Of a stretch of DNA of 33,480 nucleotides, positions 1,117 to 10,852 are shown piece after piece. Each line of letters starts with the position of its first letter. Position 1 is the first letter of the stretch. Source of the DNA: a virus. Below the pieces are notes generated by a model that was not told the DNA's origin, did not search any database, and saw only the letters and a program-made list of their open reading frames with translations. Position numbers and translations under genes: made by a program. The stretch lies in the IMG/VR virus record IMGVR_UViG_3300028591_000144. One strand, 5' to 3'.

Positions 1117-1206
1117 GTGATTGTCCTCAGCGAGAAACAAAAAAAACGGCACGCACCACCGCAAGGGCGTGAAACTCCGTAGGCTGTAGGACAGGAAGGA
1201 AAAACC
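1117..1206 (+). promoter_or_regulatory. conserved structured 5' leader (nested hairpins gtcctcagc/gctgtaggac and cacgc/gcgtg)
   Basis: Identical about 90-nt leader at 1117-1206, 3352-3442 and 5383-5461. Covarying variants elsewhere. Confidence 0.55.
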
Positions 1207-1599
1207 ATGAAGATCGAGAATTACAATCACTACAGCAGAAAGCAGGTCAACTATGGCCTGTGTGCAGGCCGTCACGATATGCCGGTTGATGAGTGCATCT
1301 TTGAGGATACACTTGATCCGACAGATTTTGACGGAATGACCCGTGTGGCCGCACGGGAATTGAAGCAGTACCGCGGCCGCAATATCCATCTGGTGGTGTA
1401 TGCCACCGGATTGACGGCCGCAATGATTGCGGTCATCAACGTTTGCGCCGCATGGCGCATTGACCTTACGGTCATGCACTATGACCGTGCAACGGGGGGC
1501 TATCTCCCCCAAACGGTCATTGAAAGGCCGTACTGCGTGTACTGCGGGGCTGAGTACCCGCTGAACGCGCAGGAATGCCCGGAGTGTCAGGCCACCTGA
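1207..1599 (+). CDS. hypothetical protein, C-terminal CxxC...CxxC zinc ribbon (130 aa), about 55 percent GC
   Basis: ORF track. SD GGAAGGAAAAACC. Motifs CVYC and CPEC at C-terminus. Confidence 0.65.
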   Translation: MKIENYNHYSRKQVNYGLCAGRHDMPVDECIFEDTLDPTDFDGMTRVAARELKQYRGRNIHLVVYATGLTAAMIAVINVCAAWRIDLTVMHYDRATGGYLPQTVIERPYCVYCGAEYPLNAQECPECQAT

Positions 1600-1610
1600 C
1601 ACTCCACAAA

Positions 1611-1637
1611 GGTAGACGGAACGCCTTAAAGACTCCG
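1611..1637 (+). promoter_or_regulatory. 27-nt intercistronic box B copy 1 (GGTAGACGGAACGCCTTAAAGACTCCG)
   Basis: Exact 27-mer directly after the stop codon and before the next SD. 12 copies in the window. Confidence 0.75.
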
Positions 1638-1662
1638 AAACATTTATATAGGAGGAAGAAAA

Positions 1663-1980
1663 ATGATGATTAAGACTTTCACGGGAGCGATTATCGCTTC
1701 TGTGAGCAGCCAAAATGAATGGGAGCGCAACCGGCTCCCGTTCATCGTGGAGTACCGCACTCAGGGCGTGCGAATTCTTCACGGGGCCGATAGCATGGAG
1801 CTGGCTCTGTACTGGGCTCGCTTCAATGCTGAAGCCCACGCCGCAAATGCGGCACCCGCGGCAACACTGTTCATTTATGAACAGAACCGCGGGAAAGACA
1901 AGCGGTTCAACCGCTGGTTGGTTGGTGCCGTCATGTATGATGGCGAAACGGTCAGCCAGTGGGTCGAGGGTCAGGAATAA
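1663..1980 (+). CDS. hypothetical protein (105 aa)
   Basis: ORF track. SD TAGGAGGAAG. Confidence 0.65.
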   Translation: MMIKTFTGAIIASVSSQNEWERNRLPFIVEYRTQGVRILHGADSMELALYWARFNAEAHAANAAPAATLFIYEQNRGKDKRFNRWLVGAVMYDGETVSQWVEGQE

Positions 1981-2002
1981 CATCCTGACCCTCTTTTTTT
2001 TT
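1965..2002 (+). terminator. rho-independent terminator
   Basis: gagggtcagga-ataaca-tcctgaccctc + T9. Confidence 0.85.
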
Positions 2003-2043
2003 GCCTTACGGCAAACCACGACTCACACAGCAAATCTATTCGC

Positions 2044-2085
2044 CTGCCCCTGCTGGGATGGGTCGGGCCGCAAGGAACGAATTTT
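2044..2085 (+). repeat. Module-A G-triplet box copy 3
   Basis: ctgcccctgctgggatgggtcgggccgcaagg. Confidence 0.7.
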
Positions 2086-2296
2086 ACAAAACAAAAGTAA
2101 CCGAAAAAACACAAAACAAAAGTGACAAAGCCAAGAGAGAAAGAAAAAATCCTGATAGTCGCATGCCACGTGCGCAAACCCCCTGTATTTACTGGACTTT
2201 TCAAGATATACGAAAAAAAATATTGAAAAAAAAATATTTTTGATATATAAAAGAATCACAACAGGCAAAAAGAAAAAACAGAAAGGGGAATGAAAT

Positions 2297-2686
2297 ATGA
2301 CTAACTGGCATGAAGTCCAGCAAGACTGGATAGGATATGAAATCAAAGATACTGATATCCCTATCCATGATTGGTGGGACCACGAAGACAGGACAACATA
2401 CATATATTGTCACGTGGCCCTCGGGACAGTTGTCTTTGTTGCTCCGGACCGTTACGGCAATGAAGACATTGCCACAGTGTTCACAAACACCGGTATAATC
2501 GGGGTTGTGAACGTCAAGACGTACAGGTTCTTGACAATGTACGTCACGTCTCAAAGTAAGCTGTTAGATGCTTACACGAGAGCACGTGGCAAGGGGAATG
2601 AACTCCCATTACCGCAAGAAACTCTTTTAGCGGTAAGAGAGTTATACAAGAATCCTGAGGCTCGAGTTAGATTGGAAATGACCTGA
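2297..2686 (+). CDS. hypothetical protein (129 aa)
   Basis: ORF track. SD AAAGGGGAATGAAAT. Confidence 0.6.
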   Translation: MTNWHEVQQDWIGYEIKDTDIPIHDWWDHEDRTTYIYCHVALGTVVFVAPDRYGNEDIATVFTNTGIIGVVNVKTYRFLTMYVTSQSKLLDAYTRARGKGNELPLPQETLLAVRELYKNPEARVRLEMT

Positions 2687-2696
2687 GCTTCGCCCC

Positions 2697-2718
2697 AAGG
2701 GGACGGGGTAAAGTCCCC
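2697..2718 (+). promoter_or_regulatory. intercistronic hairpin ggggac-GGGGTAAA-gtcccc
   Basis: Stem-loop with the GGGGTAAA loop also found at 4553-4572 and 5839-5858. Confidence 0.45.
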
Positions 2719-2747
2719 ACTAAATAACAAAGAAAGGATATGAAAAC

Positions 2748-2933
2748 ATGGCTGAAAAACCCACCCTGTATTTCGTTATGTGCTTGGAATACAAGCACAA
2801 AGATGGAACCATCACAAAGGATATGACCCTTGCGATGGTCAATGACGAAGAGTTGGCGAACAAGAATGCGCTTCTCTGGCAGAATGAACCGGAGTGCATT
2901 GGCGACATTGTTGTCCGCCCAGTAAAGTCTTAA
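2748..2933 (+). CDS. hypothetical protein (61 aa)
   Basis: ORF track. SD AAAGGAT. Confidence 0.55.
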   Translation: MAEKPTLYFVMCLEYKHKDGTITKDMTLAMVNDEELANKNALLWQNEPECIGDIVVRPVKS

Positions 2934-2941
2934 ACACTGAA

Positions 2942-2968
2942 GGTAGACGGAACGCCTTAAAGACTCCG
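2942..2968 (+). promoter_or_regulatory. box B copy 2
   Basis: Exact 27-mer. Confidence 0.75.
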
Positions 2969-2995
2969 ATACTTTAAAAGAAAGGAGAACGAAAA

Positions 2996-3079
2996 ATGCA
3001 AACTGTTATCGCAATTGCCGCGATTATTATCGCAAGTATCATCTTCTGCATCGCACATCTCTACAACATGATGCAATAA
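2996..3079 (+). CDS. small hydrophobic peptide (27 aa, MQTVIAIAAIIIASIIFCIAHLYNMMQ)
   Basis: SD AAAGGAGAA 8 nt upstream. Single predicted TM helix. Followed by hairpin. Confidence 0.5.
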   Translation: MQTVIAIAAIIIASIIFCIAHLYNMMQ

Positions 3080-3146
3080 GACCCACTGGGCCTCTTGGAA
3101 AGAGAATCCAAGAGGCCCAAAGAAAAACAAAAGTACTATACTTCGA

Positions 3147-9388: not shown

Positions 9389-9392
9389 AAAA

Positions 9393-9426
9393 AAGCCACT
9401 CTCAAATGAGAGTGGCTTTTTTTTAT
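9393..9426 (+). terminator. rho-independent terminator
   Basis: agccactctca-aa-tgagagtggct + T9. Confidence 0.85.
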
Positions 9427-9432
9427 TGTCAA

Positions 9433-9470
9433 CCGCACGTGCTGGGTAGGGCTGGGCAGCAAAAGCCGAG
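9433..9470 (+). repeat. Module-A G-triplet box copy 9
   Basis: Canonical sequence. Confidence 0.75.
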
Positions 9471-9715
9471 TTTAAGGCTATGAAATAAAACAAAAAAAGA
9501 CAAAACAAAAACGATAATTCCAAGAGCAAAGATAAAATTCCTATAATTAAAATATTATGCGCAGAAAGCCCCTATTTACTGGGGGTTTTGAAGATATATT
9601 AAAAAAAATATTGCAAAAAAAATATTTTTAATATAAGTTGTAATTGTCCTCGACAAACAATAAAAAAAAATTTAAAAGTCCTGCTTGAGGACAGCAGGCA
9701 GAAAGAGGTTACCTT

Positions 9716-10081
9716 ATGACCTATCTTTACAAACCCGAATGGCTCGAAAAGATTCTGTCTCTGTATGAGGACATTGAGTTCTTTATTCAGGACTGCAATT
9801 CTCTGTATCAGCAGATTCAGGGCGAGAGCGACCGCTTTCTTGACGGTCTGGACTGGGAATTCCATAATGGGATTAAGATTCTGTATGGTGAAAGCGTTGG
9901 AGTTAACTACCTCAACAAAATTGCCGACCTTAAGGATATTGACGTTATCCTTAAAGACTACAATCCTCAGGACTTACTTCGTTATGGGCAAGAGATTCTT
10001 GAAGAGTCTCGAAAAGAACTTGCTAATCTGGAAAAAGATTGGCGAGAGACCCTTGACCGCTGGGATGCGGAATGTAAATAA
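9716..10081 (+). CDS. hypothetical protein (121 aa)
   Basis: ORF track. SD AGAGGTTAC. Confidence 0.6.
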   Translation: MTYLYKPEWLEKILSLYEDIEFFIQDCNSLYQQIQGESDRFLDGLDWEFHNGIKILYGESVGVNYLNKIADLKDIDVILKDYNPQDLLRYGQEILEESRKELANLEKDWRETLDRWDAECK

Positions 10082-10090
10082 GCACAATAA

Positions 10091-10117
10091 GGTAGACGGA
10101 ACGCCTTAAAGACTCCG
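10091..10117 (+). promoter_or_regulatory. box B copy 10
   Basis: Exact 27-mer. Confidence 0.75.
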
Positions 10118-10146
10118 CAACTTATACTTAAAAAAGGAGATTCAAT

Positions 10147-10377
10147 ATGAAAAAATTTGCATTACTTTGCAGTATCGGCTCTCATGAATATATTAATGGT
10201 AAACATGTTATCAACTGCACGGTTAAGGACATGTTTATTGTGCGAGAAGCTGACACTGCTCAAGAGTTAGCTCCATATTGCCCTCAGCGCGTTATTTATG
10301 AAGATGGATATTGGAAATCTTTCAGTATCGAACCTCGTCGCCGGGCAAAAAGCAGTCTTGCTCCATACTTAAAGTAA
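10147..10377 (+). CDS. hypothetical protein (76 aa)
   Basis: ORF track. SD AAAAGGAGATT. Confidence 0.6.
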   Translation: MKKFALLCSIGSHEYINGKHVINCTVKDMFIVREADTAQELAPYCPQRVIYEDGYWKSFSIEPRRRAKSSLAPYLK

Positions 10378-10385
10378 AATAAACA

Positions 10386-10412
10386 GGTAGACGGAACGCC
10401 TTAAAGACTCCG
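10386..10412 (+). promoter_or_regulatory. box B copy 11
   Basis: Exact 27-mer. Confidence 0.75.
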
Positions 10413-10446
10413 CAATTTTATAAAAAAAATAGAAAGATTTTATTAT

Positions 10447-10494
10447 ATGCTTATAATTATTGTGTTTTTTATCTTAGGGAGTCTATTTGATTAA
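10447..10494 (+). CDS. tiny hydrophobic peptide MLIIIVFFILGSLFD (15 aa)
   Basis: Paralog of the 6425 and 12094 peptides. Followed by a terminator. Confidence 0.5.
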   Translation: MLIIIVFFILGSLFD

Positions 10495-10503
10495 TACAAA
10501 AAA

Positions 10504-10538
10504 AGAGAAGAGTATAAAAAACTCTTCTCTTTTTTTTT
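10504..10538 (+). terminator. rho-independent terminator
   Basis: agagaagagt-ataaaaaa-ctcttctct + T9. Confidence 0.85.
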
Positions 10539-10540
10539 AA

Positions 10541-10580
10541 CCGCCCGTGCTGGGTAGGGGTGGGCAACAAAAGCCGAGCT
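10541..10580 (+). repeat. Module-A G-triplet box copy 10
   Basis: ccgcccgtgctgggtaggggtgggcaacaaaagccgag. Confidence 0.7.
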
Positions 10581-10852
10581 TTAAACTGTAAAATAAAACA
10601 AAAAAAGATAAAACAAAAGCGGATAAAACAAAAGAGCAAATAAAAATCCCGAATTATTTTTAAGATTGCTCAAAGTACCAGTAAATACAGGGCTTTTGAA
10701 GATATATTAAAAAAAATATTGCAAAAAAAATTTTTTTGATATAAGTTGTGATTGTCAACAGGAAGCAAAACAAAAAACCTGTTGCCCCATAGGATAAGGT
10801 CGGGTTACAATTCTTATCCATTTCAAAATTTTTTCTTTAAGGAGTAAAAGCC

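Follow-up and report, generated by a model that had tools for sequence, protein, structure and literature searches.

In the 33,480-nt viral DNA stretch of IMG/VR record IMGVR_UViG_3300028591_000144 (hereafter the window), a family of structured 5' leaders lies between a repeated promoter-like block and the first genes of a series of small transcription units. Comparison with related contigs indicates that the structure of these leaders, not their sequence, is maintained by compensatory change. We see about an even chance that the leader protects the message as a stem-loop at its 5' terminus and travels on a mobile promoter-leader cassette, similar to the PeSLs, the repeated promoter and stem-loop motifs of T4-type phages. 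By its sequence, the phage is an uncultivated rumen virus related to large Bacillota siphophages and is probably TAG-recoded.

The window consists of small orphan open reading frames (ORFs) arrayed on one strand, every gene being on the plus strand, and falls into two parts. Module A extends from position 1 to ~11500 with 37-51% GC, and module B, from ~11800 on, is AT-richer and contains canonical TTGACA/TATAAT promoters and GC-rich palindromic terminators. Module A comprises ten transcription units (U1-U10), each a small-gene cassette, and the ~330-nt spacer between units was alignable across all ten. Each spacer opens with an intrinsic terminator, followed by a G-rich box (GTGCTGGGTAGGGCTGGG) and an A/C-rich stretch; next come a second hairpin of terminator-like form and a 34-nt block, and then the leader, a Shine-Dalgarno sequence (SD) and the ATG. 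The first genes of U1-U10 showed no mutual similarity (all BLASTP E >= 0.17). Pfam and PHROG scans of the module A proteins and a few others from the window gave no informative match, a homology search with a 155-aa protein returned only the protein itself, and megablast of the window's first 12 kb (module A) against GenBank phages found no match. The module A SDs are strong and of the AAAGGAG type, and the closest phage proteins belong to Enterococcus, Lactococcus and Bacillus siphophages and to the code-15 phage Phass-1; these two features together indicate a host that is probably Bacillota-like. Comparable repeats were not found in the 20 kb upstream of the YonG_N-like gene that Phass-1 shares.

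The 34-nt block, AATATTGCAAAAAAAATNTTTTTRATATAAGTTG, occurs in eight exact copies in the window, compared with 0 expected, and exact-pattern scans of viral, metagenome and genome collections gave no match to it. Aligned with the variant promoter of U1 and U3 (TTGNNA-17-TATAAA) and with the canonical TTGACA-17-TATCAT promoters of relatives, it reads TTGCAA-17-TAAGTT, from which we infer a sigma-70-type promoter. All ten units are headed by such predicted promoters, eight by the exact 34-mer and two by variants. The distant relatives L028 and L029 have textbook promoters (TTGACA-17-TATCAT with TG, and TGgTATATT), and their first leader helix starts 7-8 nt past the -10 hexamer, the usual position of +1. 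With this spacing, the predicted +1 in the window falls on the G in GTCC (positions 1123, 3358, 5380 and their equivalents), the first paired base of the leader.

Units U2, U4 and U6 carry what we term the type I leader. The initial annotation had described three identical leaders of about 90 nt here; a shared leader was indeed present at about these places, but the copies are 87-92% identical overall and ~95% identical in the folded part, with U6 shorter by 3 nt. The bounds proposed for the U2 and U4 leaders were about right (Table 1), whereas the proposed start of the third, 5383, was 8 nt late. The nested stems were reproduced by ViennaRNA, which gave the same three-helix rod for each copy. 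An outer helix (TGTCCTCAGC/GCTG(T)AGGACA) is separated by a 13-14-nt A-rich internal loop from a middle helix (ACGG/CCGT), which leads into an inner helix (CACGC/GCGTG), a bulged A, CC/GG pairs and a GCAA tetraloop of the GNRA type. Folding z-scores ranged from -2.4 to -3.3. Rfam 15 gave 0 matches at gathering thresholds across the whole window, which speaks against a riboswitch or other curated RNA family, and the leaders had no match even at E<=5. Given this and the lack of an isolated phage carrying them, the type I family is a new and well-supported RNA structure, of a kind of device that has precedent.

Covariation in the leader stems was confirmed, though only once relatives had been added. 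Exact-protein look-ups in bovine and rumen metagenomes recovered 25 related contigs, which share blocks of 75-95% identity with the window and are mosaic in gene content. Behind the same promoter block they contain 43 distinct leaders of types I, Ib, II, III, IV and V. Between type I and type Ib (L021:843 and L024:248), 19/19 pairs of the three helices are kept while ten paired nucleotides differ. The differences amount to five double compensatory changes (U-A to C-G and C-G to A-U in the outer helix, A-U to C-G in the middle helix, G-C to U-A and C-G to G-C in the inner helix) with 0 pairs disrupted; the bulged U is retained and the unpaired segments diverge freely. RNAalifold applied to a plain MAFFT alignment independently returned the same nested fold with 4 covarying pairs; this alignment moves the type Ib 3' outer arm by one column, and the pairs reported as broken are artefacts, all of them being paired in a manual structural parse. 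In a model-fitted alignment, which leans to the model and consists of related sequences, 90% of cells were paired compared with 34-45% with slid partners, and 16 pairs were changed on both sides compared with 6.0±1.6 in shuffles. A covariance model built from ten sequences matched types II and III more weakly over their full length, and it detected leaders in L028 and L029 (E 1e-3 to 5e-3), two metagenomic contigs reached through a degenerate form of the 27-mer described below. In these leaders (z -3.6) the outer helix is GUCGG/CCGAC, the inner helix is ACCC/GGGU, and 9 mixed nucleotides replace the A-rich loop, with the apex A-CC-GCAA-GG unchanged.

Outside type I, simpler hairpins around an A-rich loop had been listed for other units. 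All of these were present (Table 1), but U3 is hairpin-free, U7 is marginal, and in U8 and U9 (type II) the helix that encloses the A-rich loop is a different one, namely a long-range helix TTGTCCTCA/TGAGGACAG homologous to the type I outer stem. The previously listed local CCTGC/GCAGG hairpin overlaps this helix. Among relatives, ~99% of cells are paired in both type II helices, with 1 double change, and one-sided changes leave a G·U in 9 cells vs 2 unpaired. The local hairpin shows the double change (C-G to U-A), two wobbles and one mismatch, and the long-range helix only G·U variants and one terminal mismatch. Two other type II folds were rejected: an H-type pseudoknot (S1 GUCCUCA/UGAGGAC, S2 CCUGC/GCAGG), on the geometric argument that its 1-nt connector cannot bridge a 7-bp helix, and a local hairpin GUCCU/AGGAC, which is disrupted in the L004 and L008 variants. 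In type IV leaders of relatives, hairpin 1 shows an A-U to G·U change and hairpin 2 a G-C to A-U change on both sides. The U7 stem (7 bp with an A·A mismatch, z -0.19, P 0.46) is indistinguishable from chance, and the remainder of that leader is long and AU-rich. No hairpin was predicted for the U3 leader (minimum free energy, MFE, 0), and relatives likewise show none. Long poly-A tracts were observed in the leaders of U8 (A22, 8549-8570) and of the first module B unit (~A23, about 11884-11906). The U8 homopolymer ranges from 15 to 22 A among relatives, so that its exact length is unconstrained; it is either a slippage-prone homopolymer or one prone to sequencing error.

Table 1. Positions of leaders, promoters and other repeated elements in the window. 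Promoters and +1 are predicted.
Feature	Unit	Position	Strand	Details
Promoter block	U2	1084-1117	+	TTGCAA 1088-1093, 17-nt spacer, TAAGTT 1111-1116; predicted +1 near G1123
Other identical 34-mers		3319-3352, 4265-4298, 5341-5374, 6722-6755, 8500-8533, 9607-9640, 10715-10748		exact copies
Type I leader	U2	1118-1206	+	z -2.39; SD GGAAGGA from 1195; ATG 1207
Outer helix	U2	1122-1131 / 1183-1186 + 1188-1193	+	bulged T1187
A-rich internal loop	U2	1132-1145	+	
Middle helix	U2	1146-1149 / 1177-1180	+	
Inner helix	U2	1150-1154 / 1167-1171	+	CC-GCAA-GG cap at 1159-1166
Type I leader	U4	3353-3442	+	z -3.31; ATG 3443
Outer helix	U4	3357-3366 / 3417-3420 + 3422-3427	+	
Middle helix	U4	3380-3383 / 3411-3414	+	
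Inner helix	U4	3384-3388 / 3401-3405	+	GNRA cap 3393-3400
Type I leader	U6	5375-5461	+	z -2.80; ATG 5462
Outer helix	U6	5379-5388 / 5437-5440 + 5442-5447	+	one G·U
Middle helix	U6	5403-5406 / 5431-5434	+	
Inner helix	U6	5407-5411 / 5421-5425	+	GNRA cap 5413-5420
Type II leader	U8	8534-8613	+	z -2.57; SD AAAGAGG after local hairpin; ATG 8614
Long-range helix	U8	8537-8545 / 8584-8592	+	around 38-nt loop including A22
Local hairpin	U8	8577-8581 / 8592-8596	+	
Type II leader	U9	9641-9715	+	ATG 9716
Long-range helix	U9	9644-9653 / 9685-9694	+	centroid structure; P 0.0025
Local hairpin	U9	9680-9684 / 9694-9698	+	
Type III leader	U5	4299-4354	+	z -1.33, P 0.02; ATG 4355
Helix GTACTCAGC / GCTGAGAC	U5	4304-4312 / 4329-4336	+	16-nt A-rich loop
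Type IV leader	U10	10749-10852	+	ATG 10853
Hairpin 1	U10	10756-10762 / 10778-10784	+	15-nt A-rich loop
Hairpin 2	U10	10792-10798 / 10813-10819	+	SD ~25 nt beyond
Type V leader	U7	6756-6860	+	ATG 6861
Stem TTGTCAGC / GCAGACAA	U7	6759-6766 / 6800-6807	+	
Variant promoter and leader	U1	335-421	+	TTGCTA 335-340 / TATAAA 358-363; ATG 422
Hairpin GCAGAG / CTCTGC	U1	376-381 / 401-406	+	z -1.64, P 0.04; ~6 nt inside predicted +1, 5' end unpaired
Variant promoter and leader	U3	2223-2296	+	TTGAAA 2223-2228 / TATAAA 2246-2251; leader short, A-rich; ATG 2297
Previously listed hairpins, all found		376-381/401-406, 4307-4312/4329-4334, 10756-10762/10778-10784, 8577-8581/8592-8596, 9680-9684/9694-9698		
27-mer		1611-1637, 2942-2968, 4848-4874, 6132-6158, 6371-6397, 7337-7363, 7735-7761, 7999-8025, 8957-8983, 10091-10117, 10386-10412, 11240-11266		
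G-rich box		about 160-190, 910-940, 2045-2075, 3150-3180, 4093-4120, 5171-5200, 6552-6585, 8329-8360, 9436-9470, 10544-10575		
G-rich box, degenerate copies		near 11283 and 11598		
Terminator-like hairpin		290-316, 1042-1066		equivalents ~20 nt upstream of each 34-mer
Module B palindromic terminators		13385-13425, 15612-15660, 17104-17150, 18018-18058, 19082-19125, elsewhere		

The one-sided transitions in helices also bear on the strand that is read. In our own count, 7-8 of them keep a G·U pair on the sense strand vs 1 on the antisense strand (one-sided binomial ~0.035), which mildly supports an RNA of the sense strand. It is at odds with an action of the element on the opposite strand or as DNA, in the form of an antisense intrinsic terminator, a cruciform or an operator. 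A minus-strand scan did return terminator matches at 1162-1146, 3396-3380, 5416-5403, 8590-8575 and 9698-9680; in types III, IV and U1, however, the T-rich stretch would fall in the loop and not after the stem. Moreover, all genes lie on the plus strand. The inverted repeats vary in sequence from unit to unit and hence do not form one operator. We regard this explanation as highly improbable.

The folds were then considered with respect to the 5' end and the SD. The best duplex between leader nt 1-18 and the remainder beat dinucleotide shuffles for seven leader types taken together (Fisher P ~1e-4, or ~3e-3 by our own calculation from the same P values when types I-III are treated as one lineage). 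The longest perfect helix was of no use as a statistic, since A/T runs swamped it in the shuffled sequences. When RNAs were folded from 7 nt past the -10 hexamer, a start predicted from spacing, nt 1-6 were paired with a probability of >=0.77 in 10/16 leaders compared with 0.3-0.46 in shuffles (Fisher P ~8e-7, the cases being not fully independent). The SD and AUG were single-stranded in every MFE and centroid structure, and the enclosed loops were 78% A and 6.6% U. The claim that the SD begins right after the structure applied to types I, II, III and U1, where the 3' arm ends 1-8 nt before the SD, but not to U7 and U10, where the SD lies 60-70 nt further on.

A 5' end fully engaged in pairing, a U-poor spacer shut inside the loop and a strong SD left accessible match the properties of 5'-terminal protective stem-loops. 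In the mechanism we propose, the leader would be transcribed as a 5' untranslated region, and in its helix the mRNA's initial bases (5'-GUCCUCAGC... or a variant thereof) would pair with the segment immediately 5' of the SD. The arms would enclose an A-rich, U-poor spacer, joined in type I by a stable GNRA-capped hairpin. As a result, the 5' end would not be free, little U-containing single strand would be exposed, and the SD would stay open. The stem would block the pyrophosphohydrolase RppH and 5'-end-dependent attack by RNase J1, Y or E; phage messages would outlast others and translation would stay constitutive. In B. subtilis, a hairpin located at the 5' end or close to it has a stabilising effect on long stretches of downstream RNA, and BsRppH requires at least 2 unpaired 5' nucleotides (PMC3997798, sections 6-7). 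The need of RNase E and RppH for single-stranded 5' ends explains stabilisation by 5' structure, for which work on ompA, papA and aprE is cited (PMC3997798). The window leaders resemble these stabilisers (E. coli ompA and papA, B. subtilis aprE, ermC-type) in a predicted 5'-terminal helix beside a strong, exposed ribosome-binding site, in the conservation of structure rather than sequence, and in a host that is probably Bacillota-like. They differ in that the whole leader is closed by the stem around a long A-rich loop, that type I adds a conserved GNRA hairpin, and that the element recurs at least 8 times as part of a cassette.

Several observations weigh against this protective role. Most of the simple hairpins are individually weak (z -0.2 to -1.6), and those of U1, U5, U8, U9 and U10 draw their support, weak for each one, from position, G·U-preserving changes and a few compensatory changes. 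Many leaders share the 5' arm by descent, so that the combined P values overstate independence. The +1 is placed by spacing prediction only, and plus- and minus-strand MFE values showed no consistent asymmetry, with the plus strand not favoured overall. In the variant-promoter units (U1, U3 and L008:5287) the 5' end is unpaired or the leader hairpin-free, and a 5'-pairing device is therefore not universal. Finally, the invariant type I apex (bulged A, CC/GG, GNRA) is more than a simple protective stem needs, and the compensated, mutually exclusive second hairpin of type II also goes beyond it.

As for the roles previously offered, cis-acting RNA structure in the 5' leaders of co-regulated small genes is supported, with its pairs kept by compensatory change; that these are early genes is plausible. 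Among the three roles the stability element fits best: from the predicted +1 onward, the stem encloses the whole leader as far as the SD. A thermosensor does not fit, as the SD and AUG are never within a helix. Nor does one sequence-specific operator for a regulon, since stems, loop lengths and inner elements vary by type, some units are hairpin-free, and the A-rich loop is gone in distant relatives. An attenuator or intrinsic terminator was rejected as well: no leader gave a plus-strand terminator-like match, the hairpins lack a T-run behind them and are therefore not intrinsic terminators, and the leaders contain no ATG-initiated ORF.

The second component of the proposal, a mobile cassette, rests on the relation between leaders and genes. 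U2, U4 and U6 share one leader type despite unrelated first genes. In relatives, type II occurs before four different genes and types IV and V before two each, and one gene (MKESVL...) lies behind two different type II subtypes. Where genes are replaced between relatives, homology is lost ~10 nt ahead of the ATG and picks up again at the 27-mer past the stop codon; for instance, the window gene 6861-7328 is replaced in L008, with homology stopping at 6851 and resuming at 7333. The same leader type before unrelated genes, together with replacements that start just after the SD, indicates that the leader belongs to the cassette and not to the gene. The near-identity of the U2, U4 and U6 leaders is that of a repeated, recombining promoter-leader cassette and not of three independently conserved regulators. 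Recombination between the repeated spacers would shuffle unrelated ORFs behind the same leader. An integron attC origin was rejected: the hairpin arms contain no R-box consensus (RYYYAAC...GTTRRRY), each cassette has its own promoter, and the junctions in relatives lie at the SD and the 27-mer, not in the hairpin.

The mosaic gene content of close relatives, with junctions in repeated regulatory DNA, and the identical leaders before unrelated genes would also be expected if the spacer mattered as DNA only, as a promoter-terminator linker giving homology for shuffling in the manner of PeSLs, with the hairpins as relics or attenuators of upstream transcription; PeSL subclasses with a stem-loop between the -10 and the SD are known (PMC2839356). 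However, a mere homology patch would not keep compensatory double changes and G·U-preserving transitions, and the leader hairpins lack a T-run, the terminator-like hairpin being a separate element upstream of the promoter. We regard this explanation as quite unlikely.

The cassette itself has a close parallel in the PeSLs of T4-type phages, in which repeated promoter and stem-loop motifs flank ORFans and mediate modular shuffling, one subclass lying between the -10 and the SD (PMC2839356). Both are repeated composites in which an AT-rich region leads into a strong sigma-70-like promoter, with a stem-loop and an SD behind it, and both lie in an ORFan-rich hyperplastic region (PMC2839356, PMC4122927); in both, close relatives differ by ORF insertion, deletion or replacement at the motifs. 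In contrast, the PeSL stem-loop is a G/C-run terminator or attenuator, whereas the window leader hairpin has no U-run and shows RNA-type covariation; here the terminator role fits the separate hairpin upstream of the promoter (e.g. 1042-1066). In addition, the window phage is not a T4-type myovirus, its spacer is much longer (~330 nt), and it has an extra G-box and 27-mers at internal gene boundaries. Every module A promoter is immediately preceded by a terminator-like hairpin, AGCCCCTAnnnnnGGGGCTTTTTTT, which probably shields the unit from transcription reading through from upstream, the role of the stem-loop in PeSLs.

The 27-mer, GGTAGACGGAACGCCTTAAAGACTCCG, is present in 12 copies, before each non-first gene of the units. 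Nearly all non-first genes have a copy 25-40 nt ahead of their SD; the one at 11240 stands instead after the last gene of U10. It can form a small hairpin, (A/G)GGU...GCC(U/C), in which A-U changes to G-C on both sides in relatives, and its sequence is strongly conserved. It marks the downstream edge of gene replacements and occurs in distant relatives lacking the module A promoter. Searches with the 27-mer pattern in viral and genome collections gave no match, and the degenerate version led to the two distant relatives in metagenomes. In Rfam, the 27-mer showed a sub-threshold similarity (24 bits vs a gathering score of 41.2) to the DUF2815 RNA RF03084, a phage 5'-UTR (untranslated region) motif. 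Both have GGGUAGACG, a hairpin with a ~13-nt loop, a spacer, AAAGGAG and AUG, but the 27-mer stem is only 4 bp and the downstream genes are unrelated small ORFs.

These properties are also relevant to the possibility that an RNA-binding factor of phage or host origin binds the leaders, especially the type I GNRA hairpin, and the 27-mer, and co-ordinates all module A cistrons; a translational repressor or activator, a nut/boxB-like antitermination loader and a processing endonuclease are candidates. The apex A-CC-GCAA-GG is invariant from the window to L028 and L029 over helices that covary, a pattern typical of protein-recognised hairpins, and the one relative with a GCGA loop still has a GNRA tetraloop. 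The type I inner element resembles the 27-mer (ACGGnACGC...AARACUCCG), which itself stands 12 times before internal genes, is sequence-conserved and occurs in distant relatives, and two competing helices are kept in type II. Nevertheless, the inner hairpin occurs in 3/10 window units only, the loop of type Ib is ACAC and not GNRA, and the other types share no loop or bulge motif beyond a generic A-richness that is also seen in untranslated spacer DNA away from the leaders. Pfam and PHROG scans identified no RNA-binding protein among the ORFs, and there are no internal terminators inside units to bypass. Lambda nut (boxA + boxB) and HK022 put are similar in having a small hairpin with a GNRA-like loop in an early-operon leader, close behind the early promoter and after a conserved linear stretch; in the window, the hairpin is limited to type I, no boxA-like consensus was seen, the units contain no internal terminators, and an N-like protein was not recognised among the scanned proteins. 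On balance, a binding site is unlikely but deserves serious consideration. More doubtful is the narrower idea that a single dedicated factor of the phage, whether an endonuclease or an RNA-binding regulator, recognises both the type I GNRA hairpin and the 27-mer. If it were true, module A would be a post-transcriptional regulon with each cistron tagged, processed and protected individually, and through the 27-mer it would be linked to the DUF2815 RNA, an uncharacterised motif found in other phages.

Alternatively, the leader could be an RNA processing site at which host RNase III or Y, or a phage nuclease, makes a stable 5' end. The irregular type I rod of ~21 bp with its asymmetric internal loop would suit such cleavage, and related 27-mers lie between cistrons, where processing is expected, but the helices of types II-V, at only 6-10 bp, are too short for RNase III. 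The same contrast holds for the RNase III hairpins between T7 early genes, which likewise are structured elements before each cistron of an early polycistronic phage region; the window helices are too short and irregular. Processing is decidedly unlikely.

The leaders provide a clean, covariation-backed example of a large uncultivated rumen phage standardising the expression of a shuffling set of orphan, plausibly early genes through a single portable promoter-leader module, whose RNA fold is probably protective. With them, the concept of the mobile regulatory cassette, known from PeSLs, reaches past the T4-type phages and gains a component at the level of RNA. Rfam contains neither the leader family nor the 27-mer; models of both could be built and used to search other phage genomes. 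In practical terms, the cassette is a candidate for a compact element of expression and stability in Bacillota-type hosts. It would imply no new kind of biology unless the protein-binding reading is right.

Further observations concern the G-rich box and the genetic code. The box, (C)GTGCTGGGTAGGGCTGGGC.GCAA..CCGA, has three GGG runs and follows each operon terminator; a variant, GCGCTGTGGGGTGTGYTGGG, stands at the same position in L029. A canonical quadruplex was rejected for it because of too few G-runs. Next to module A in L008, a minus-strand gene (936-2279) encodes a 447-aa YonG_N-like protein with 11 in-frame TAG codons and ends in TAA; the observation also takes in neighbouring minus-strand genes of L007, L008 and L010. 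Phass-1, among the named relatives, is classified by NCBI in the 'Caudoviricetes code 15 clade'. In the window, TAG terminates 1/80 SD-preceded ORFs. In its late genes, the phage thus probably decodes TAG as sense, with this early region compatible with the standard code. Two paralogous 74-codon genes differ in that 5898-6122 has an in-frame TGA where 4613-4837 has TGG (Trp); TGA ends 14 other window ORFs, and the in-frame codon could mean that the gene is a pseudogene, that it is read through or that recoding occurs locally. In the first 54 nt of the window, a T run is followed by ~24 G. The near-identical contig L001 ends ~32 nt inside the window, and other relatives run upstream into DUF488 and MazE-like genes, so that these homopolymers look like an assembly or contig-end artefact and not a genome terminus.

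In module B, units end in long GC-rich palindromic terminators with a shared core, TTTGCGCGCG...CGCAAA, a family also represented at L029:8961-8997. Its sole tRNA, also the only one in the window, is a tRNA-Ser with anticodon CGA (26135-26215), which is not a suppressor. Promoter-driven stretches without a convincing ORF were noted at about 17235-17345, 25850-26100, 27405-27650, 31975-32110 and 32270-32400. Several start with ATTGTC like module A leaders and finish at terminators or T-runs, and none matched Rfam at gathering thresholds; they are candidate small RNAs. Finally, L029:1485-1688 and L028:3801-4004 have in common a ~204-nt leader after TTGCAA-17-TATACT that begins GTCCTCAG/GTCCCCAG; a high degree of structure is predicted for it (MFE ~-52 kcal/mol), and it may be a separate structured RNA.

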